From the sequence record NC_054918.1: a DNA stretch of 64,000 bases, one strand, 5' to 3'. Positions 15,801 to 64,000 of this stretch are shown here, one piece after another. The DNA comes from Escherichia phage vB_EcoM_G4498. Both the position numbers and the translations under genes were made by a program. Position 1 is the stretch's first letter, and each line of letters opens with the position of its first letter. The notes under the pieces are model-generated. The model did not search any database and was not told the origin of the DNA. It saw only the letters and a list, made by a program, of their open reading frames with translations.

Positions 15801-16451
15801 TTATTTTTCCTTTCTTATGAAGTTTTCTATCATATGTCTATAGCAGATATTAGGATAACCTGCCTTGACAGCTATTTTATTAAATTTTGTGCGCTTAGGT
15901 CTATTATTATAAACCCATAATTCATAAAGCGCATCATAACTATTCCATATTTCTCCTCGCCTAGGATTTGGTAAACCATATCGAGGTGAATTTTTACCGC
16001 TAAATCTTCCTTTTCGGGCTTTACTCATATTAGCCTTGGCTTCATCGGATATAATTTTACCTTTATGAGCTAGACGCATTTTGGCTTTAGTTTCTTCTGG
16101 GGTCTTTTTGCCTTTAATCCATGACGGCTTGCCATATCTAGGATTATTTTCACCCGAGAAAAGAACAGAGTTTTGGATTTTAAGGGTTTCTATTAATCTA
16201 CTTGTTAATTTAACACCTTTATTATATCGCATTAAATTTACAGCATAATGCAATCCTCTCACATCTGGATATATTTTAGTTAATAATCTATGAGCTATAA
16301 AATGCTCACGCGCAGTTAACTCAACAAGATTGTTTTTGTCATCTGCTCCTCCTATACATCTAGGAATTATATGATGGCGTTCTTTATATCCGCCAAGATG
16401 CCGGCATTTAGCTTTTGTAATTAAAGCCGAGTAAATTTTTTGGTAATTCAC
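15801..16451 (-). CDS. free-standing HNH homing endonuclease (Mob-like), 216 aa, GTG start
   Basis: HHIIPR...NLV.LT.REH HNH core. NUMOD3-like repeats (NNPRYGKP, KNSPRYGLP). GTG at 16449-16451 after AAGGA. Confidence 0.85.
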   Translation of the reverse strand: MNYQKIYSALITKAKCRHLGGYKERHHIIPRCIGGADDKNNLVELTAREHFIAHRLLTKIYPDVRGLHYAVNLMRYNKGVKLTSRLIETLKIQNSVLFSGENNPRYGKPSWIKGKKTPEETKAKMRLAHKGKIISDEAKANMSKARKGRFSGKNSPRYGLPNPRRGEIWNSYDALYELWVYNNRPKRTKFNKIAVKAGYPNICYRHMIENFIRKEK

Positions 16452-16521: not shown

Positions 16522-16722
16522 ATGGTACAAAAATTAATGGCACTTGTTAATGCCATAAAAGGTAATAAGAAACGTATAGCTTTTACTATTTCTGCTATGG
16601 TAGGAATTTTACTCTGGAACTTTATTTTATCACCTGTTGCAATTGCACATGGTATTAATATTCCAGTAGTTACTCTTGATACATTCGTAGATTTAGCATT
16701 TGCTTTAGTTGGGTTAATTTAA
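16522..16722 (+). CDS. small two-TM membrane protein, 66 aa, plus strand
   Basis: Strong SD AAGGAGG 4 nt before the ATG and phage-like A/T-ending codons. Two hydrophobic segments. The 3-prime end overlaps the gene 61 stop convergently. Confidence 0.45.
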   Translation: MVQKLMALVNAIKGNKKRIAFTISAMVGILLWNFILSPVAIAHGINIPVVTLDTFVDLAFALVGLI

Positions 16723-17747
16723 ATCTTAGCATATTTAGATAGCCGCATTTTAGCCATCAACCCCTGGGCAATATTATTTTTCATATATTCCATAATTTGT
16801 TCAGGGGTTGCACCTTCCTTTCTAATCATATCATTAACATCTTTTGATTTCCAGGGAGATTTATCCCAAAACATAACCCTTTCTCCTACATCAACTAATT
16901 TAGTCATTCGCTTGATAGTGTCAGGGTGACGAGGTTCATTATCTAAAACCCACACTCGTCTATCTTTAAATGGAACAACTTCTAGGTCTAATTGACCACC
17001 CGTAATAGCTATACCATTTTCAATAAAAAGTGAATCTATAGGTCCTTCTAGAACATATACATCACCATCTTTAACTCGTTCAACACCGTAAATTTTTGTT
17101 GCCTCAGGATAAGCTTTAATGGTGATATATTTTTGAGGAGCATCTTTCTTTAATGCACGTCCTTGAAAAGACTCAGCTTTTCCATTAGCATTATAAATTG
17201 GAATAACAAGACGAGGCTCAGAAATTTCCTTTTTGTATGTTCCCGGTGCTATGCTATTAACTAATTTAGGCCATTCGGTTGTAAACCAAAGATATTTCCA
17301 TTTATCCTTTGGAATACAACGAGCTTTTACATATTTTATAATTGGATGGTCTTCCGCCAGTTTATCTAATCTAACACATGACGGAAGAGATTTAATTATT
17401 TTCTTCTCAGGTTGCTTAGGAAGTTCTTTAGGTTTTTCTACTGGACGACTTTTACCTTTTTCTTTTCTTATTTCAAAAATATACTCACGATATAAATCAG
17501 GTTCAAACTCCTTTAAATATATTCCGATTGGTGCATGATAGTTACAGTTATAACAATGAATATTTCCTTCATTATTATCGCCGTAATACCATCCACGGGC
17601 TTTATTTTGGTCGGTTTTTGAATCTCCACAAACAGGGCATCTAAACCGTAATTTAAAAGTTGAACTATTATTTACTTGTGTGAATTTAGGTAAATGAGCT
17701 AGCGCACGGTATGCAAACTCATTATCAATCCAAGGTATTGATGACAT
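16719..17747 (-). CDS. 61: DNA primase gp61, 342 aa
   Basis: Zinc ribbon CPVCGDS...CYNC plus Toprim. Matches T4 gp61. Confidence 0.95.
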   Translation of the reverse strand: MSSIPWIDNEFAYRALAHLPKFTQVNNSSTFKLRFRCPVCGDSKTDQNKARGWYYGDNNEGNIHCYNCNYHAPIGIYLKEFEPDLYREYIFEIRKEKGKSRPVEKPKELPKQPEKKIIKSLPSCVRLDKLAEDHPIIKYVKARCIPKDKWKYLWFTTEWPKLVNSIAPGTYKKEISEPRLVIPIYNANGKAESFQGRALKKDAPQKYITIKAYPEATKIYGVERVKDGDVYVLEGPIDSLFIENGIAITGGQLDLEVVPFKDRRVWVLDNEPRHPDTIKRMTKLVDVGERVMFWDKSPWKSKDVNDMIRKEGATPEQIMEYMKNNIAQGLMAKMRLSKYAKI

Positions 17748-17749
17748 TT

Positions 17750-17914
17750 TTACTCTTCTTTTTCTTTAGATTCCTCTTTTTTCTTTTTAGGAATCTGTTC
17801 AGGACCTTTATTTACTACAGCGCCTGATGCTGTTCCAGTAGAGATATTTTCAGGATTACCACCTGAATCTCCAGCGACCATATCTTCTTTGATAAATTCT
17901 TTATATGTTTTCAT
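17750..17914 (-). CDS. small protein (61.1 position), 54 aa, with a capsid-targeting-like N-terminus (not in the ORF track)
   Basis: My own translation: MKTYKEFIKEDMVAGDSGGNPENISTGTASGAVVNKGPEQIPKKKKEESKEKEE. Fills the gap exactly. Confidence 0.55.
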   Translation of the reverse strand: MKTYKEFIKEDMVAGDSGGNPENISTGTASGAVVNKGPEQIPKKKKEESKEKEE

Positions 17915-17915
17915 A

Positions 17916-18542
17916 TTAACCTCTATTCATAAAAGCATTAAAAATTTGGTCATCAATAGAAACATTCACTTTAGACTGTTTTTCTGATGGTAATTCATAT
18001 CCACATATTACAATTTTATGATCAATATCAAAATACACAGAAGCAATATGATTAATGATGTTTTCAGTAAAGTCTAAATCAACATCAATATCTTTTTGAC
18101 CACAGCCCAAAGGATAAATAATGCGAGTAATTCGATTATCTTTAACAAAGATTCCACCGATATACTCTGTGCTGCGTTCAAAGTCTACACGCCGACGAAA
18201 TGAAAAATATTCAGGCTCTTTATGAGCTCGGCTCATAGGACACAACGAGTAACTAGAATAAGAGATGTCAAATCCTACGCCTTCAATATGAGCCAAATTA
18301 TCATGATTAAACCAATTATAATCGTACGCCAAGTCCATTAGATTATAATATGTGAAAGGCACCGGATTAACATCACTAGTCGCAAGCATGTAATTAGCAA
18401 CTGCTATAATTTCGTTGTTTTTAACGAATACAAACCGCGATTGATGCGAATGACCTGGACCTGCGTTTTCACGATTAATGATATAACACTGGGCACCTTT
18501 ATATTTGTACGTGTCTTTGCACTTGTGCATTTGATAAAGCAT
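17916..18542 (-). CDS. adfA: gp61.2-position protein, 208 aa (family reported as AdfA, anti-DarTG)
   Basis: Position between 61.1 and sp and size. The assignment to the AdfA family is from memory of the literature, not from alignment. Confidence 0.5.
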   Translation of the reverse strand: MLYQMHKCKDTYKYKGAQCYIINRENAGPGHSHQSRFVFVKNNEIIAVANYMLATSDVNPVPFTYYNLMDLAYDYNWFNHDNLAHIEGVGFDISYSSYSLCPMSRAHKEPEYFSFRRRVDFERSTEYIGGIFVKDNRITRIIYPLGCGQKDIDVDLDFTENIINHIASVYFDIDHKIVICGYELPSEKQSKVNVSIDDQIFNAFMNRG

Positions 18543-18863: not shown

Positions 18864-18893
18864 ATAGTATCTCAATTTCCAACAAAAGTAAAC
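18864..18893 (-). promoter_or_regulatory. early promoter
   Basis: GTTTAC-N18-TACTAT upstream of sp. Confidence 0.65.
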
Positions 18894-19147
18894 TATTTTA
18901 TTTCCTCAAGTTCGTTAATCAATAAAAGTTCTCTGACGCTAAAAACAAAGAAAAATGTGTTCCCATCAACCAGAGCATGACCGCTAATAGAACACCCTCT
19001 GCGGAATTTAGAAACTTCACAATCTAGAACTGTAAAGGGTTTTAATCCTATGACTTTAGCTATGCGTCTATTCAGTTCACAACCACTTGCGAATTTTTCC
19101 AAATCTTCTTCTGATTTAAACTGATATTCTCTATTAACTAGCATCAT
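18893..19147 (-). CDS. GoF-like small protein, 84 aa
   Basis: VNREYQFKSEEDLEKF...RRIAKVIGLKPFTVLD aligns with [16 protein letters not shown]...[13 protein letters not shown] of the goF product. It has its own early promoter at 19179-19208. Confidence 0.65.
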   Translation of the reverse strand: MMLVNREYQFKSEEDLEKFASGCELNRRIAKVIGLKPFTVLDCEVSKFRRGCSISGHALVDGNTFFFVFSVRELLLINELEEIK

Positions 19148-19178
19148 TTTCTTTTCTCCGCGATTAGCTGATAGAATT

Positions 19179-19208
19179 ACTATAACACAACTCTATCAGC
19201 TTGTAAAC
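19179..19208 (-). promoter_or_regulatory. early promoter
   Basis: GTTTAC-N18-TATAGT upstream of the GoF-like ORF. Near-duplicate of 19667-19696. Confidence 0.65.
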
Positions 19209-19210
19209 TA

Positions 19211-19453
19211 CTATTTTACTAGCATCAATAACTGTTTCTCTAACTTGACGATTTTACGAAAGTATCTTTTGCATTGGCGAATCTGCCGCTTCGTAGGGCG
19301 CACAGCAAACTTAATAAATTCAACTCGACCAAATGGAGGACTTTCTTCTGCTGGAATATCTAACACCAATTCCCACGTATCTGCAATAAGTGCTTTGAAT
19401 TGAGTATTTTTCCTGACATTATACGGAGTAGGTTTAAATAAAACAATGTGCAT
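19211..19453 (-). CDS. small basic protein, 80 aa, translationally coupled to dmd (61.4/TifA-position candidate)
   Basis: ATG at 19451-19453 after GAGGA, 1 nt past the dmd stop. Basic C-terminus RPTKRQIRQCKRYFRKIVK. Confidence 0.55.
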   Translation of the reverse strand: MHIVLFKPTPYNVRKNTQFKALIADTWELVLDIPAEESPPFGRVEFIKFAVRPTKRQIRQCKRYFRKIVKLEKQLLMLVK

Positions 19454-19454
19454 A

Positions 19455-19637
19455 TTATCCTCGGCAATCCACTTCGCATACTTTCTTGTCATCAATGAAA
19501 GCTTTAACTAATGCTTTATTAACTTCAGCATATTGAGTAGTAGCCCATTGAACGTCGTCTTTCATCATTGTGATTTCTTTAGTAAACATGCTTTCATTCT
19601 TAAACCACCCCATAAAAACTACCTTTACCAATTCCAT
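19455..19637 (-). CDS. dmd: Dmd antitoxin (inhibitor of RnlA/LsoA), 60 aa
   Basis: MELVKVVFMGWFKNESMFTKEITMMKDDVQW... matches T4 Dmd in size and position. Confidence 0.85.
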   Translation of the reverse strand: MELVKVVFMGWFKNESMFTKEITMMKDDVQWATTQYAEVNKALVKAFIDDKKVCEVDCRG

Positions 19638-19666: not shown

Positions 19667-19696
19667 ACTATACCATAGTCCTGTCAGCTTGTAAAC
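19667..19696 (-). promoter_or_regulatory. early promoter
   Basis: GTTTAC-N18-TATAGT upstream of dmd. Confidence 0.65.
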
Positions 19697-21483: not shown

Positions 21484-22657
21484 TAAATTCTTCCATATCA
21501 CTTAACTGTTCGAGGTCAGTTTCTAAATCAGCAGCTGATTTACTTTTACTTTCTGGAGATTTAAATTTTTCAACCTTTGAGTTAATCAATTCATCAACTT
21601 CAGCTTCAACAATTTCATTGCTATCAATAGCACCTAACTGATAAGCACGTTTAATAGCATCTCGGAATGGTTGATGCTTAAATAAAGGACCCCAGAATGT
21701 AGTGCAGTTGGTATCTTTTGCACGCCAAGATTTTTCTTCGCGAATCATCTCACCGGTTTCTTCATCAAGAAATTCACGAGCATACCAACCGTTCTTAGGT
21801 TTTACCACGAATCCTAATTCTAGAGCCATATCTAACAATCCAGAATAAGGATCGATACCACCGTCAAATTTAACATCAATAAAGAATTTACTTTTTTCTT
21901 TAACGGTACGAGATTTTTCTACATTTAGAACAAATTGATACCCCTGAAGATCAGAACCATCTTTAATCTGGCGCTTACCGATAATGAATACGGTATCAGC
22001 TGAATACATTACGCCTGTACCACCTGTCATCACGGTTTTACTAAACATTTCAATTGTTTCAATTGTATGGTTAACCGCAACGCACGGAATATTTTTAATG
22101 CTAAAATAAGGAGTAACAATACGGAATAATGACTTCAGTGATTTAGCACGAGTCATATCTGCCACAGATTTTTCATTCAAGGCATCTTCCGTTTCTTTCT
22201 TAGAAGCCATATTACCGATTGAGTCGATGAATACAATAACCTTTTCACCACGCTCAATAGCTTCAAGCTGGTTCACCATATCAATTTTCAGTTGTTCAAC
22301 TGACTGAATCGGCGTATGAATTACTCGTTCCGGGTCAACTCCCATGGATCGCAAATAAGCTGGAGTAATACCAAATTCACTATCATAGAATAGACAAACC
22401 GCGTCAGGATATTTGTTCAAATATGCCGCAACCATAGTCAAAGACATATTTGATTTAAAGTGTTTAGAAGGCCCTGCGAAAATAGTTAAACCAGACTGCA
22501 TACCGCCATCAATCGCACCAGAAATAGCAATATTAAGCATTGGAATTTTTGTACGAATTACATCCTTTTCATTAAAGAATTTAGATGTAGTCAGTTCAGC
22601 AGTCATTTTAGAAGTGGAAGCTTTAATCAAACGGGATTTTAAATCTGCAATAGACAT
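21476..22657 (-). CDS. uvsX: UvsX recombinase (RecA/Rad51 family), 393 aa
   Basis: Near-identical to my memory of T4 UvsX (GPSKHFKS Walker A and the acidic C-terminus). Confidence 0.95.
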   Translation of the reverse strand: MSIADLKSRLIKASTSKMTAELTTSKFFNEKDVIRTKIPMLNIAISGAIDGGMQSGLTIFAGPSKHFKSNMSLTMVAAYLNKYPDAVCLFYDSEFGITPAYLRSMGVDPERVIHTPIQSVEQLKIDMVNQLEAIERGEKVIVFIDSIGNMASKKETEDALNEKSVADMTRAKSLKSLFRIVTPYFSIKNIPCVAVNHTIETIEMFSKTVMTGGTGVMYSADTVFIIGKRQIKDGSDLQGYQFVLNVEKSRTVKEKSKFFIDVKFDGGIDPYSGLLDMALELGFVVKPKNGWYAREFLDEETGEMIREEKSWRAKDTNCTTFWGPLFKHQPFRDAIKRAYQLGAIDSNEIVEAEVDELINSKVEKFKSPESKSKSAADLETDLEQLSDMEEFNE

Positions 22658-62940: not shown

Positions 62941-62975
62941 GCATGAATTGTCCATTTCTGTATTTACCCATTACC
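62941..62975 (-). repeat. 35-nt element following an internal-protein gene (copy 1)
   Basis: gcatgaattgtccatttctgtatttacccattacc. 33/35 identical to 63577-63611. Confidence 0.8.
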
Positions 62976-63048
62976 GCACTTGGGCTCGACCTTATTACAT
63001 GTTGGCGGGAATCCCTCACAAAATCATGAGGTCCAGGTTGTTCCCATG

Positions 63049-63522
63049 TTATTTGAACGATTTAACGTACTGAATAGAACCTTTACTATTCACAAAGGCA
63101 ATTTTACCATTTTTGTTATACATAGTAGCAGTACGTTGATAACCGTAAGTTTGTTTACCAGATTGATAACCAACTAATGCGAAATTATCTTCACCCATTT
63201 TATTCTGTTTAGCGCGAATGCGTTCATGACCATGTGCCATAAGAACCTTAGCATCACCAGTTGCAATGGATCGACGAGTTTTTTCATCTTCAGCTGTATT
63301 AACAAAGTCGTCAAATGAATCAAATTTAGCATGAGATTTATTATACAGTTTTCCATCTACTGCATAATTATATCCTTGTACATCCATCTCAACTTCTGTA
63401 CCATCATCTAATACAGCAGTAATTTTCTGTCCTTTTTTAAATTTCAAAAGATCAGTAAAAGATTCAGCAATAATTTGAGAATTAATAGCTGCCTCAGTAA
63501 TAAATTCTTGATATGTTTTCAT
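63049..63522 (-). CDS. capsid-targeted internal head protein (IP family), 157 aa
   Basis: The N-terminus MKTYQEFITEA is the T4 internal-protein capsid targeting sequence with a prohead-protease site. The body does not match my memory of IPI/II/III. Confidence 0.75.
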   Translation of the reverse strand: MKTYQEFITEAAINSQIIAESFTDLLKFKKGQKITAVLDDGTEVEMDVQGYNYAVDGKLYNKSHAKFDSFDDFVNTAEDEKTRRSIATGDAKVLMAHGHERIRAKQNKMGEDNFALVGYQSGKQTYGYQRTATMYNKNGKIAFVNSKGSIQYVKSFK

Positions 63523-63563
63523 GTATATCCTTTAAATGTAAATAGTTTTATTCTTTAAGTTTT

Positions 63564-63589
63564 GGACAATTCACACGCATGAATTGTCC
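63564..63589 (-). other. perfect 10-bp stem / 6-nt loop hairpin between the two IP genes
   Basis: ggacaattca-cacgca-tgaattgtcc. Confidence 0.7.
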
Positions 63590-63611
63590 GTTTCTATATT
63601 TACCCATTACC
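63577..63611 (-). repeat. 35-nt element following an internal-protein gene (copy 2)
   Basis: gcatgaattgtccgtttctatatttacccattacc. Its low-coordinate end forms one arm of the perfect 10-bp hairpin at 63564-63589. Confidence 0.8.
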
Positions 63612-63630
63612 AGGTTCGAACTCGGCTTTA

Positions 63631-64000
63631 TTAAGAATTACCGCGGGCTGCATTAGCAACGGCGTAAGCGTACTGAACATTAGCGTCTTTAAACGTACCT
63701 TTAGAGGTATCTATTTCTGCCCTAAAGCCGCCTTTAGTCATAACATCGGCAAATTCTTTACGGAAAGCCATTGCATCAAGACTTCTCCATGATGATTTGT
63801 GCTTGGCAAATTCAAGACCTGCGAAGTTGACAGCTTTAGCCAATTTATTATCAATGACCCATTTACCGGCTTTAGGCACAAACTTCGGGCCTTTTTGTTT
63901 AGAGAACAGTTTTAAATTCCAGCGACGAAGGTCACTGTCGGCTTTAACAAAAGCTGCGTCTAAGTTACTAGCAACAACATCTTCAATATGAGCAAATTTA
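63631..64000 (-). CDS. 3-prime part of a gene running off the window end (probable second internal protein)
   Basis: The frame stays open from 63879 to 64000 (...KFAHIEDVVASNLDAAFVKADSDLRRWNLKLFSKQKGPKFVPKAGKW...). The track start is an internal GTG. Followed by the same 35-nt element that follows the IP gene. Confidence 0.6.
   Translation of the reverse strand, partial: KFAHIEDVVASNLDAAFVKADSDLRRWNLKLFSKQKGPKFVPKAGKWVIDNKLAKAVNFAGLEFAKHKSSWRSLDAMAFRKEFADVMTKGGFRAEIDTSKGTFKDANVQYAYAVANAARGNS

Follow-up and report, generated by a model that had tools for sequence, protein, structure and literature searches.

The stretch analysed here, 64,000 nt of Escherichia phage vB_EcoM_G4498 (sequence record NC_054918.1; hereafter the window), contains at 17750..17914, on the minus strand, a small gene of 54 codons and a stop codon, the product of which is MKTYKEFIKEDMVAGDSGGNPENISTGTASGAVVNKGPEQIPKKKKEESKEKEE. 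An earlier inspection of the letters alone (the sequence-only reading) had singled out this 54-amino-acid (aa) open reading frame (ORF) starting MKTYKEFIKED, and its position was confirmed. It is the orthologue of T4 gene 61.1 in Tequatrovirus; the T4 copy begins MKTFKEFIKE and is labelled just 'gp61.1 hypothetical protein'. The surrounding region (~17.4-18.3 kb) showed 98-99% identity to many Tequatrovirus genomes, with KIT06 and a48 as the best. The product is a member of phrog_1823 (E = 1.1e-32, residues 1-54) and also matched phrog_2086 (E = 5.8e-16), where residues 8-53 fell on profile positions 109-154, while Pfam and NCBIfam generated no hits, permissive thresholds included (Pfam E <= 10).

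The gene can be divided into three parts, all on the minus strand. Codons 1-10 (17885..17914) encode the leader MKTYKEFIKE, which resembles the capsid targeting sequence (CTS) of T4 internal proteins (IPs) and ends in an I-x-E processing motif. Codons 11-42 (17789..17884) encode DMVAGDSGGNPENISTGTASGAVVNKGPEQIP, a paralogue of the N-terminus of gp23*, the mature T4 major capsid protein, covering the N-fist (gp23 66-91) and the start of the N-arm. Codons 43-54 (17753..17788) encode the charged tail KKKKEESKEKEE, which in the alignments is purely basic (K/R-rich) in most relatives; the predicted mature peptide of Tequatrovirus is net acidic. The AlphaFold2 (AF2) model is disordered save for a leader helix at residues 4-12. 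Primase gene 61 (16719..17747, minus strand), the conserved neighbour of the family, starts with an ATG at 17747, 2 nt past the 61.1 stop. Directly upstream lies gene 61.2 (17916..18542, minus strand), which is AdfA (anti-DarT factor A; Pfam PF23813, E = 9.5e-135) and whose stop codon (17916-17918) is 1 nt ahead of the 61.1 ATG. The GAGG Shine-Dalgarno sequence of 61.1 (17920..17923, minus strand) is located within the last 61.2 codons, 5 nt before the ATG. Upstream of 61.2 are sp, two small ORFs, dmd and helicase gene 41.

The comparison made by the sequence-only reading was with the internal protein gene at 63049..63522 (minus strand), and it was borne out: the 157-aa product starts MKTYQEFITEA, carries the CTS MKTYQEFITE|A (bars mark cleavage sites), and matches PF24183 and phrog_3155 'internal virion protein'. 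The count of four differences in the first 27 nt of the two genes is also exact. The further claim that the likeness is at the DNA level, beyond that of the peptides, did not hold. One synonymous difference was found among seven identical residues, against 2.4 expected from the codon usage of the window, and the flanks are unrelated, with 13/40 identical positions in the upstream 40 nt and 8/30 at nt 31-60. As codon bias accounts for the identity, the DNA adds nothing to what the peptides already tell. Recent transfer of DNA from an ip gene was rejected on the same grounds, synonymous differences fitting codon bias and flanks being unrelated.

At the peptide level the likeness is genuine and specific. 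A degenerate pattern of 23 nt that encodes the shared peptide had two matches only in the 64-kb window, 61.1 and the internal protein gene, with 0 expected. A six-frame scan of the T4 genome (put together from four fetched pieces) for the ORF-start motif M-K-[TS]-[YF]-x-[EQD]-[FWY] returned only ipI, ipII, ipIII and 61.1, plus one 3-codon fragment. The leader is thus a specific look-alike of the CTS, as had been proposed, the motif being limited in T4 to the IP genes and 61.1. Mutagenesis of the IPIII CTS by Black identified residues 4 and 7 as the main targeting determinants and residues 8 and 10 as determinants of processing (PMC9026906, review). All four are kept in 61.1 (Y/F4, F7, I8 and E10): the targeting determinants, aromatic 4 and Phe 7, are present in both the window (MKTYKEFIKE) and T4 (MKTFKEFIKE), as in IPII/III (MKTYQEFIAE) and IPI (MKTFKEF), and the processing determinants are present as I8-K9-E10, which align with gp23 L63-T64-E65. 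The two deviations from IPII/III, K5 and K9, are both known in bona fide IP genes, T4 ipI having MKTFKEF, and JS98 having MKTYKEFIAE (ipIII) and MKTYQEFIKE. Judged by sequence, the leader of Tequatrovirus 61.1 thus falls within the variation that the tag shows in nature.

As some public records carry the label 'major capsid domain-containing protein' on this small protein, 61.1 was compared with T4 head proteins. BLASTP aligned its residues 2-38 with gp23 57-93 without gaps, 15/37 being identical. A family profile was then built from 48 representatives with <=50% mutual identity, all but one of which are not T-even 61.1 copies, and run against all 2371 stop-to-stop ORFs of >=30 codons in T4. 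The best hits were 61.1 (E = 5e-23) and gp23 (E = 9.5e-15, 51 bits), and the next best had E = 0.037. A similar profile run against 177,635 distinct PDB sequences retrieved gp23 (E = 1.8e-13) and mature gp23* (1.6e-11), with the next at 0.17. The homologous stretches, 61.1 residues ~7-46 and gp23 62-101, correspond over ~40 residues without a gap. The aligned gp23 stretch is 62-FLTE|AEIGGDHGYNATNIAAGQTSGAVTQIGPAVMGMVRR-101, the bar being the gp21 maturation cut, and the first residue of mature gp23* pairs with D11 of 61.1, so that the cut predicted at I8-K9-E10|D11 coincides with the proven gp23 cut L63-T64-E65|A66.

Both proteins share the signature G-D-x-G-x...N-I-A-x-G-x-T-S-G-A-V...G-P, a cleavage motif in register, and a segment that is disordered in isolation. 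The two paralogues are both strongly conserved, each with a signature of its own: GDSGG in 61.1 versus GDHGY in gp23 orthologues. They differ in that 61.1 is without the delta-domain residues 1-56 and the HK97-fold body of gp23 (PF07068 gave no Pfam match to the 54 residues even at E <= 10), and in that the segment is followed by the N-arm and P-domain in gp23 and by a Lys-rich tail in 61.1. A word-index search for gp23 homologues returned fragments only, so major capsid proteins were taken from phage records instead. The module profile scored ~50 bits (E about 1e-17 to 1e-16) against those of Tequatrovirus, Krischvirus, Lazarusvirus and Ceceduovirus, and <1 bit against those of two Kyanoviridae (syn9, S-PM2) and two Ackermannviridae (BSP101, YC). 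The segment concerned is well characterised in T4. The N-fist is defined as gp23 residues 66-91 (PMC7136217), and residues 66-105 are disordered inside the unexpanded head, where they probably touch the scaffolding core (PMC9546572). Head-length mutations (A66D, A94V, G97S) map to the segment, which on expansion shifts to the outer surface; there the N-fist touches four subunits and contributes to the Soc site (PMC9546572, PMC9958956).

An exhaustive profile search of 1.84 billion representatives yielded 50 relatives of 61.1, about half of them short (50-70 aa) and the rest 125-165 aa long with the module as their C-terminus. The long form (~155 aa) is phrog_2086, called 'T4-like phage protein, T4 GC1491' in some records. 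It occurs in Slopekvirus, Krischvirus and T4-like phages of Acinetobacter, Aeromonas and Vibrio, sharing with 61.1 the C-terminal module, the phi-x-E junction, the basic tail and the site upstream of primase. It differs in its N-terminus, where a helical domain of ~100 residues (AF2 predicted local distance difference test 77-89, moderate confidence) stands in place of the 10-residue CTS-like leader of the T-evens; a Foldseek search of this domain against PDB gave no fold match, and the pTM of the long-form model was 0.41. AlphaFold modelled the module as disordered in long and short forms alike.

A tblastn search with the long form retrieved 851 phage records, including T4-like phages of Escherichia, Klebsiella, Acinetobacter, Vibrio, Enterobacter and Aeromonas. 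Synechococcus phages were not among the ten commonest organism names of these records, yet 389 Synechococcus phage records hold a gp23 homologue. As the module profile scored, among the major capsid proteins of eight phages, those of Straboviridae only, the N-fist and the 61.1 family appear to share their phyletic range. At 14 loci inspected from several genera, the gene is placed between helicase 41 and primase 61, in nearly all cases with 61 as the next gene downstream, and the genes between 41 and 61.1 turn over. Between 2 and about 60 nt separate 61.1 from primase, and Slopekvirus has two ORFs in between. Between T-even genera the synonymous divergence (dS) of the module is saturated and the nonsynonymous divergence (dN) is 0.08-0.30; in the comparisons with a defined dS, dN/dS comes to 0.06-0.33. 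The 61.1 family is under purifying selection.

The junction is the feature that the two forms and the head proteins have in common. At the position of gp23 E65, [LIVMFC]-x-E was found in 91/96 distinct family sequences, long forms included. The long-form junctions (...TLIKE|DMVAGD, ...LPLFE|DMVAGD, ...DLDYLRE|AMVAGD), the gp23 junction QAFGSFLTE|AEIGGD and the IP junction KTYQEFIAE|A all fit the pattern aromatic-x-x-(F/L)-(I/L)-x-E|. Since long forms, gp23 and IPs share it, the IKE of the T-even leader is ancestral to the 61.1 family rather than borrowed. The tag of the IPs and the propeptide junction of gp23, together with the junction of 61.1, look like variants of a single motif.

Locus L040 (2210-2947) and also proteins P0039, P0052 and P0055 show 245-251-aa fusions in which a long-form 61.1 and its Lys-rich linker are followed by a second CTS-like motif (e.g. 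MNEVSNFKQFVEGLE|A) and a domain of ~95 residues. The C-terminal extension of the 245-aa fusions had no PHROG match. A second CTS-like motif after a basic linker is as expected of a protease-processed polyprotein, and by its sequence the layout looks like one.

The 61.1 transcript was classed as 'early' in a time-resolved T4 study, as were those of ipII and ipIII, which were listed as 'early transcript, late protein' (PMC9697503, Table S2). In the window, a promoter-like site with an extended -10 (TTTACA-17-TGnTATAGT) is located at 19179..19207 and a second one, also with an extended -10, at 19667..19695, both identified by sequence pattern and both on the minus strand. No terminator-like site was found in the window sequence between both of them and 61.1, and the site at 19179..19207 could drive early co-transcription through 61.1. 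The ip genes are likewise preceded by early-type promoters, and the late-promoter box TATAAATA was not found directly upstream of 61.1, ipI, ipII or ipIII. A late promoter was accordingly discarded as a test of head function, the box being missing from 61.1 and ip genes alike, and early expression is no argument against a role in the head. Knock-down of 61.1 by CRISPRi-ART in a laboratory host caused no fitness defect (score -0.84, p = 0.93, 'Not Fit'; PMC11879866 supplement).

Our tentative preference, to which we give slightly less than an even chance, is that 61.1 encodes a prohead-directed peptide processed by gp21. It is the simplest reading, as the conserved junction matches a proven gp21 site, the segment behind it is one that faces the core in gp23, the tail is basic in most relatives, and gp21 is met inside the prohead. 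From these relationships we infer the following course. 61.1 would be a small intrinsically disordered protein in three parts, namely a 10-residue equivalent of the CTS, an ancient gp23 paralogue of ~35 residues and a charged tail, made early as the ip genes are. The leader, the gp23-like segment or both would bring it into the scaffolding core of the prohead, where gp21 would cut after I8-K9-E10, at the position homologous to gp23 L63-T64-E65. The peptide of 44 residues freed by the cut would have a new N-terminus like that of gp23*, and may serve as an accessory to head assembly or maturation or remain as a minor internal peptide. In Straboviridae other than the T-evens, the ~100-residue N-terminal domain that replaces the short leader may do the delivery; the long propeptides of giant-phage head proteins (PMC5694885) offer a comparison.

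Several observations weigh against this proposal. The leader is less constrained than the junction and module: a K-x-[FY]-x-[EDKQN]-[FYWLV] start occurs in 33/53 short forms, which are not phylogenetically independent sequences, with several near misses, and in 0 long forms, and some short-form lineages begin otherwise, e.g. MTLLEKYKQSLSE|MVAGD. JS98 61.1 has drifted to MKSFKEVMNE (V7/M8), while the five IP-type ORFs of that phage keep MKTYxEF(I/L). Conservation of the N-terminus across homologues, which the sequence-only reading had raised, is thus partial, T4 and the window keeping the tag and the JS98 leader, the long forms and some short forms lacking it; likewise, among the three genomes compared (T4, the window and JS98), the leader is co-conserved with the other CTSs of its own genome in T4 and the window and not in JS98. 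The residue after the putative cut (P1') is Asp in 61.1, versus Ala or Ser at the aligned IP and gp23 sites. A mass-spectrometry catalogue of 13 gp21 sites in nine T4 head proteins makes no mention of 61.1 (PMC5694885), and the protein was not detected (NA) in a proteome of T4-infected cells in which 61.2, sp, 61.4 and dmd were (PMC9697503). The missing signal is weak negative evidence, as 61.1 offers only one or two usable tryptic peptides. The tryptic peptide predicted for the uncut protein is EDMVAGDSGGNPENISIGTTSGAVVNK, and the semi-tryptic one predicted after a cut behind E10 is DMVAGDSGGNPENISIGTTSGAVVNK. A disordered 4.5-kDa peptide could moreover leave the way scaffold fragments do, by the capsomer openings of 14-17 A (PMC9546572), and that the gene is fixed beside primase suggests a link of another kind. 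The support for packaging or cleavage is indirect.

An alternative that is unlikely but deserves serious weight is that 61.1 stays in the cytoplasm, unpackaged, and mimics the N-terminal junction of gp23 before gp23 is made, acting as a regulator or a defence decoy. Its partner could be a phage factor (the gp21 zymogen, gp22 or a chaperone) or a host defence protein that senses capsid protein. T4 gp23 does trigger host systems such as CmdTAC (PMC11618068), and a gene that is transcribed early, lies at the edge of a dmd-tifA-sp-adfA anti-defence island and is dispensable in a laboratory host fits an accessory or anti-defence role; the disorder predicted by modelling would suit a linear-motif decoy. 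Host-specific counter-defence genes, however, are not expected to be conserved across Straboviridae of Escherichia, Klebsiella, Acinetobacter, Aeromonas and Vibrio in a fixed position while their neighbours turn over, and the IP-type leader of the T-evens is left unexplained. The Gol segment that activates Lit, which we take to be gp23 residues 93-122, also lies mostly outside the homologous stretch. A further possibility, which we hold to be improbable, is that the 61.1 family is a free-standing N-fist that mimics the major capsid protein of its own phage, either carried into the prohead and trimmed by gp21 to fill N-fist sites left empty by the lattice, or made early as a decoy saturating host immune sensors or chaperones of the nascent gp23 N-terminus. 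In the head, portal-facing N-fists are disordered and gp24 is without an N-fist.

The sequence-only reading had gone further than the prohead, proposing that the 44-residue product is kept in the head and injected with the DNA, to act like IPI as an effector in the next host. The evidence from CTS and processing site is the same as for a gp21-processed head peptide, the basic tail of most relatives could ride on DNA, and IP genes already occupy more than one locus, ipI being apart from ipII and ipIII. Real IPs, however, are hypervariable among close relatives and have folded mature domains, whereas the mature part of 61.1 is the most conserved part of its gene, disordered and a paralogue of capsid protein. 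The Tequatrovirus mature peptide is also net acidic, a peptide of 4.5 kDa could leave the capsid, and detection in virions is not on record. An injected effector is consequently less likely, and doubtful indeed, and the IP-like cargo assumed for it is contradicted by what the cargo is: a paralogue of the N-terminus of gp23, it is deeply conserved, occurs across Straboviridae and is fixed beside primase. That position suits an element linked to primase, either an upstream ORF whose translation sets the expression of gene 61 or a small accessory of the replisome, with the resemblances to head proteins irrelevant to function. The family lies directly upstream of gene 61 in nearly all loci inspected, in the window the gap to primase is 2 nt, and the purine-rich tail codons overlap the region where primase translation is initiated. 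Such a link would have to accommodate a spacing of up to about 60 nt, the two intervening ORFs in Slopekvirus and selection that acts on the amino-acid sequence of the module, beyond the 3' end alone; it would also turn the 50-bit gp23 match and the IP-only leader motif into unexplained coincidences, and we consider it very unlikely. That the resemblances arose by chance, or that 61.1 is a decaying fragment without function, might be suggested by the shortness of the ORF, the undetected protein and the knock-down without a fitness effect. The conservation statistics effectively refute this, with dN/dS well below 1 at saturated dS, homologues in >800 phage records, profile E-values of 1e-13 to 1e-15 and the uniqueness of the motif in T4 and the window, and its probability is negligible.

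Among known systems, the closest parallels are the T4 internal proteins IPI, IPII and IPIII with their CTS (Mullaney and Black 1996, as summarised in PMC9026906). 61.1 shares with them the leader MKT(Y/F)(Q/K)EF(I)xE with aromatic 4, Phe 7 and I-x-E at 8-10, transcription from early promoters and dispensability in laboratory hosts. They differ in cargo and setting: IPs are packaged and carry hypervariable cargo in cassette-like ip loci, whereas 61.1, for which packaging is predicted from sequence, carries a conserved, disordered 44-residue gp23 paralogue beside primase, and its orthologues outside the T-evens have a ~100-aa N-terminal domain in place of the leader. A small ORF that stems from the N-terminal part of a head protein processed by gp21 has a precedent in T4 alt.-1/alt.-2, which the annotation traces to an old, partial duplication covering the 5' part of alt. 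These adjoin their parent gene, whereas 61.1 is ~85 kb from gene 23, far older and conserved family-wide. The T4 internal peptides II and VII, small acid-soluble head peptides made by gp21 cleavage of late core proteins, stay in the head, like the fate proposed for 61.1, which differs in being a dedicated early gene.

The gene itself is already annotated, and its capsid-like label comes from automated pipelines. In the literature, we found no functional assignment for 61.1 and no description of its IP-type leader, its homology to the gp23 cleavage site and N-fist, or the relation between short and long forms. The set of T4 proteins that are processed by gp21 and targeted to the core has been treated as closed (gp23, gp24, gp22, gp21, gp67, gp68, IPI-III and Alt). 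With a fourth ORF that has an IP-type leader, the textbook account of T4 head assembly would gain a component or a regulator, and by its sequence 61.1 is a candidate for a head-associated peptide so far overlooked, one that can be tested directly. What it carries is a conserved copy of the very gp23 segment involved in core contact, in head-length mutations and later in the N-fist. The motif aromatic-x-x-Phe-(I/L)-x-Glu| links the IP CTS, the gp23 propeptide junction and a family-wide 'hypothetical protein', which suggests a possible origin of the CTS. As vaccine and delivery vectors based on T4 capsids are loaded with foreign proteins by way of the CTS, a minimal pair of CTS and peptide that occurs in nature would be of practical interest, and should 61.1 prove not to be packaged, it would still show what targeting requires besides the decapeptide. 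A free-standing N-fist, if true, would give the best-studied phage a small capsid-mimic protein of a new class.

The interval from 41 to 61 differs among relatives, with the position of 61.1 constant. Between sp and dmd the window has two small ORFs (84 aa and 94 aa, 18893-19495), where T4 has a single 61.4. On the other side of 61.1, the place that dam has in T4, between gene 56 and primase 61, is taken by an ORF for a 216-aa HNH-type endonuclease (15801-16451), and a 79%-identical copy is found in the same place in IMG/VR locus L012.

At the comparator ip locus, the 157-aa internal protein gene (PF24183) stands where T4 has ipII, and the same GGTAATGGGTAAATAYAGAA stretch occurs at both flanks (62956-63640), with a perfect hairpin, GGACAATTCATGCGTGTGAATTGTCC, upstream of the gene; the repeats and hairpin look like conserved cassette borders of the ip locus. 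Next to it is the 3' part of ipIII (63631..64000, minus strand; phrog_5341), whose frame is open to base 64000, the window end. It matches T4 IPIII residues ~72-193, and the listed 82-aa ORF is its 3' part only. JS98 (NC_010105) carries at about 22260-22553 (minus strand), between trna.4 and 57B and thus at the T4 ipI position, an unannotated 97-aa ORF starting MKTYQEFIKES, which brings the CTS-bearing ORFs of that phage to five.

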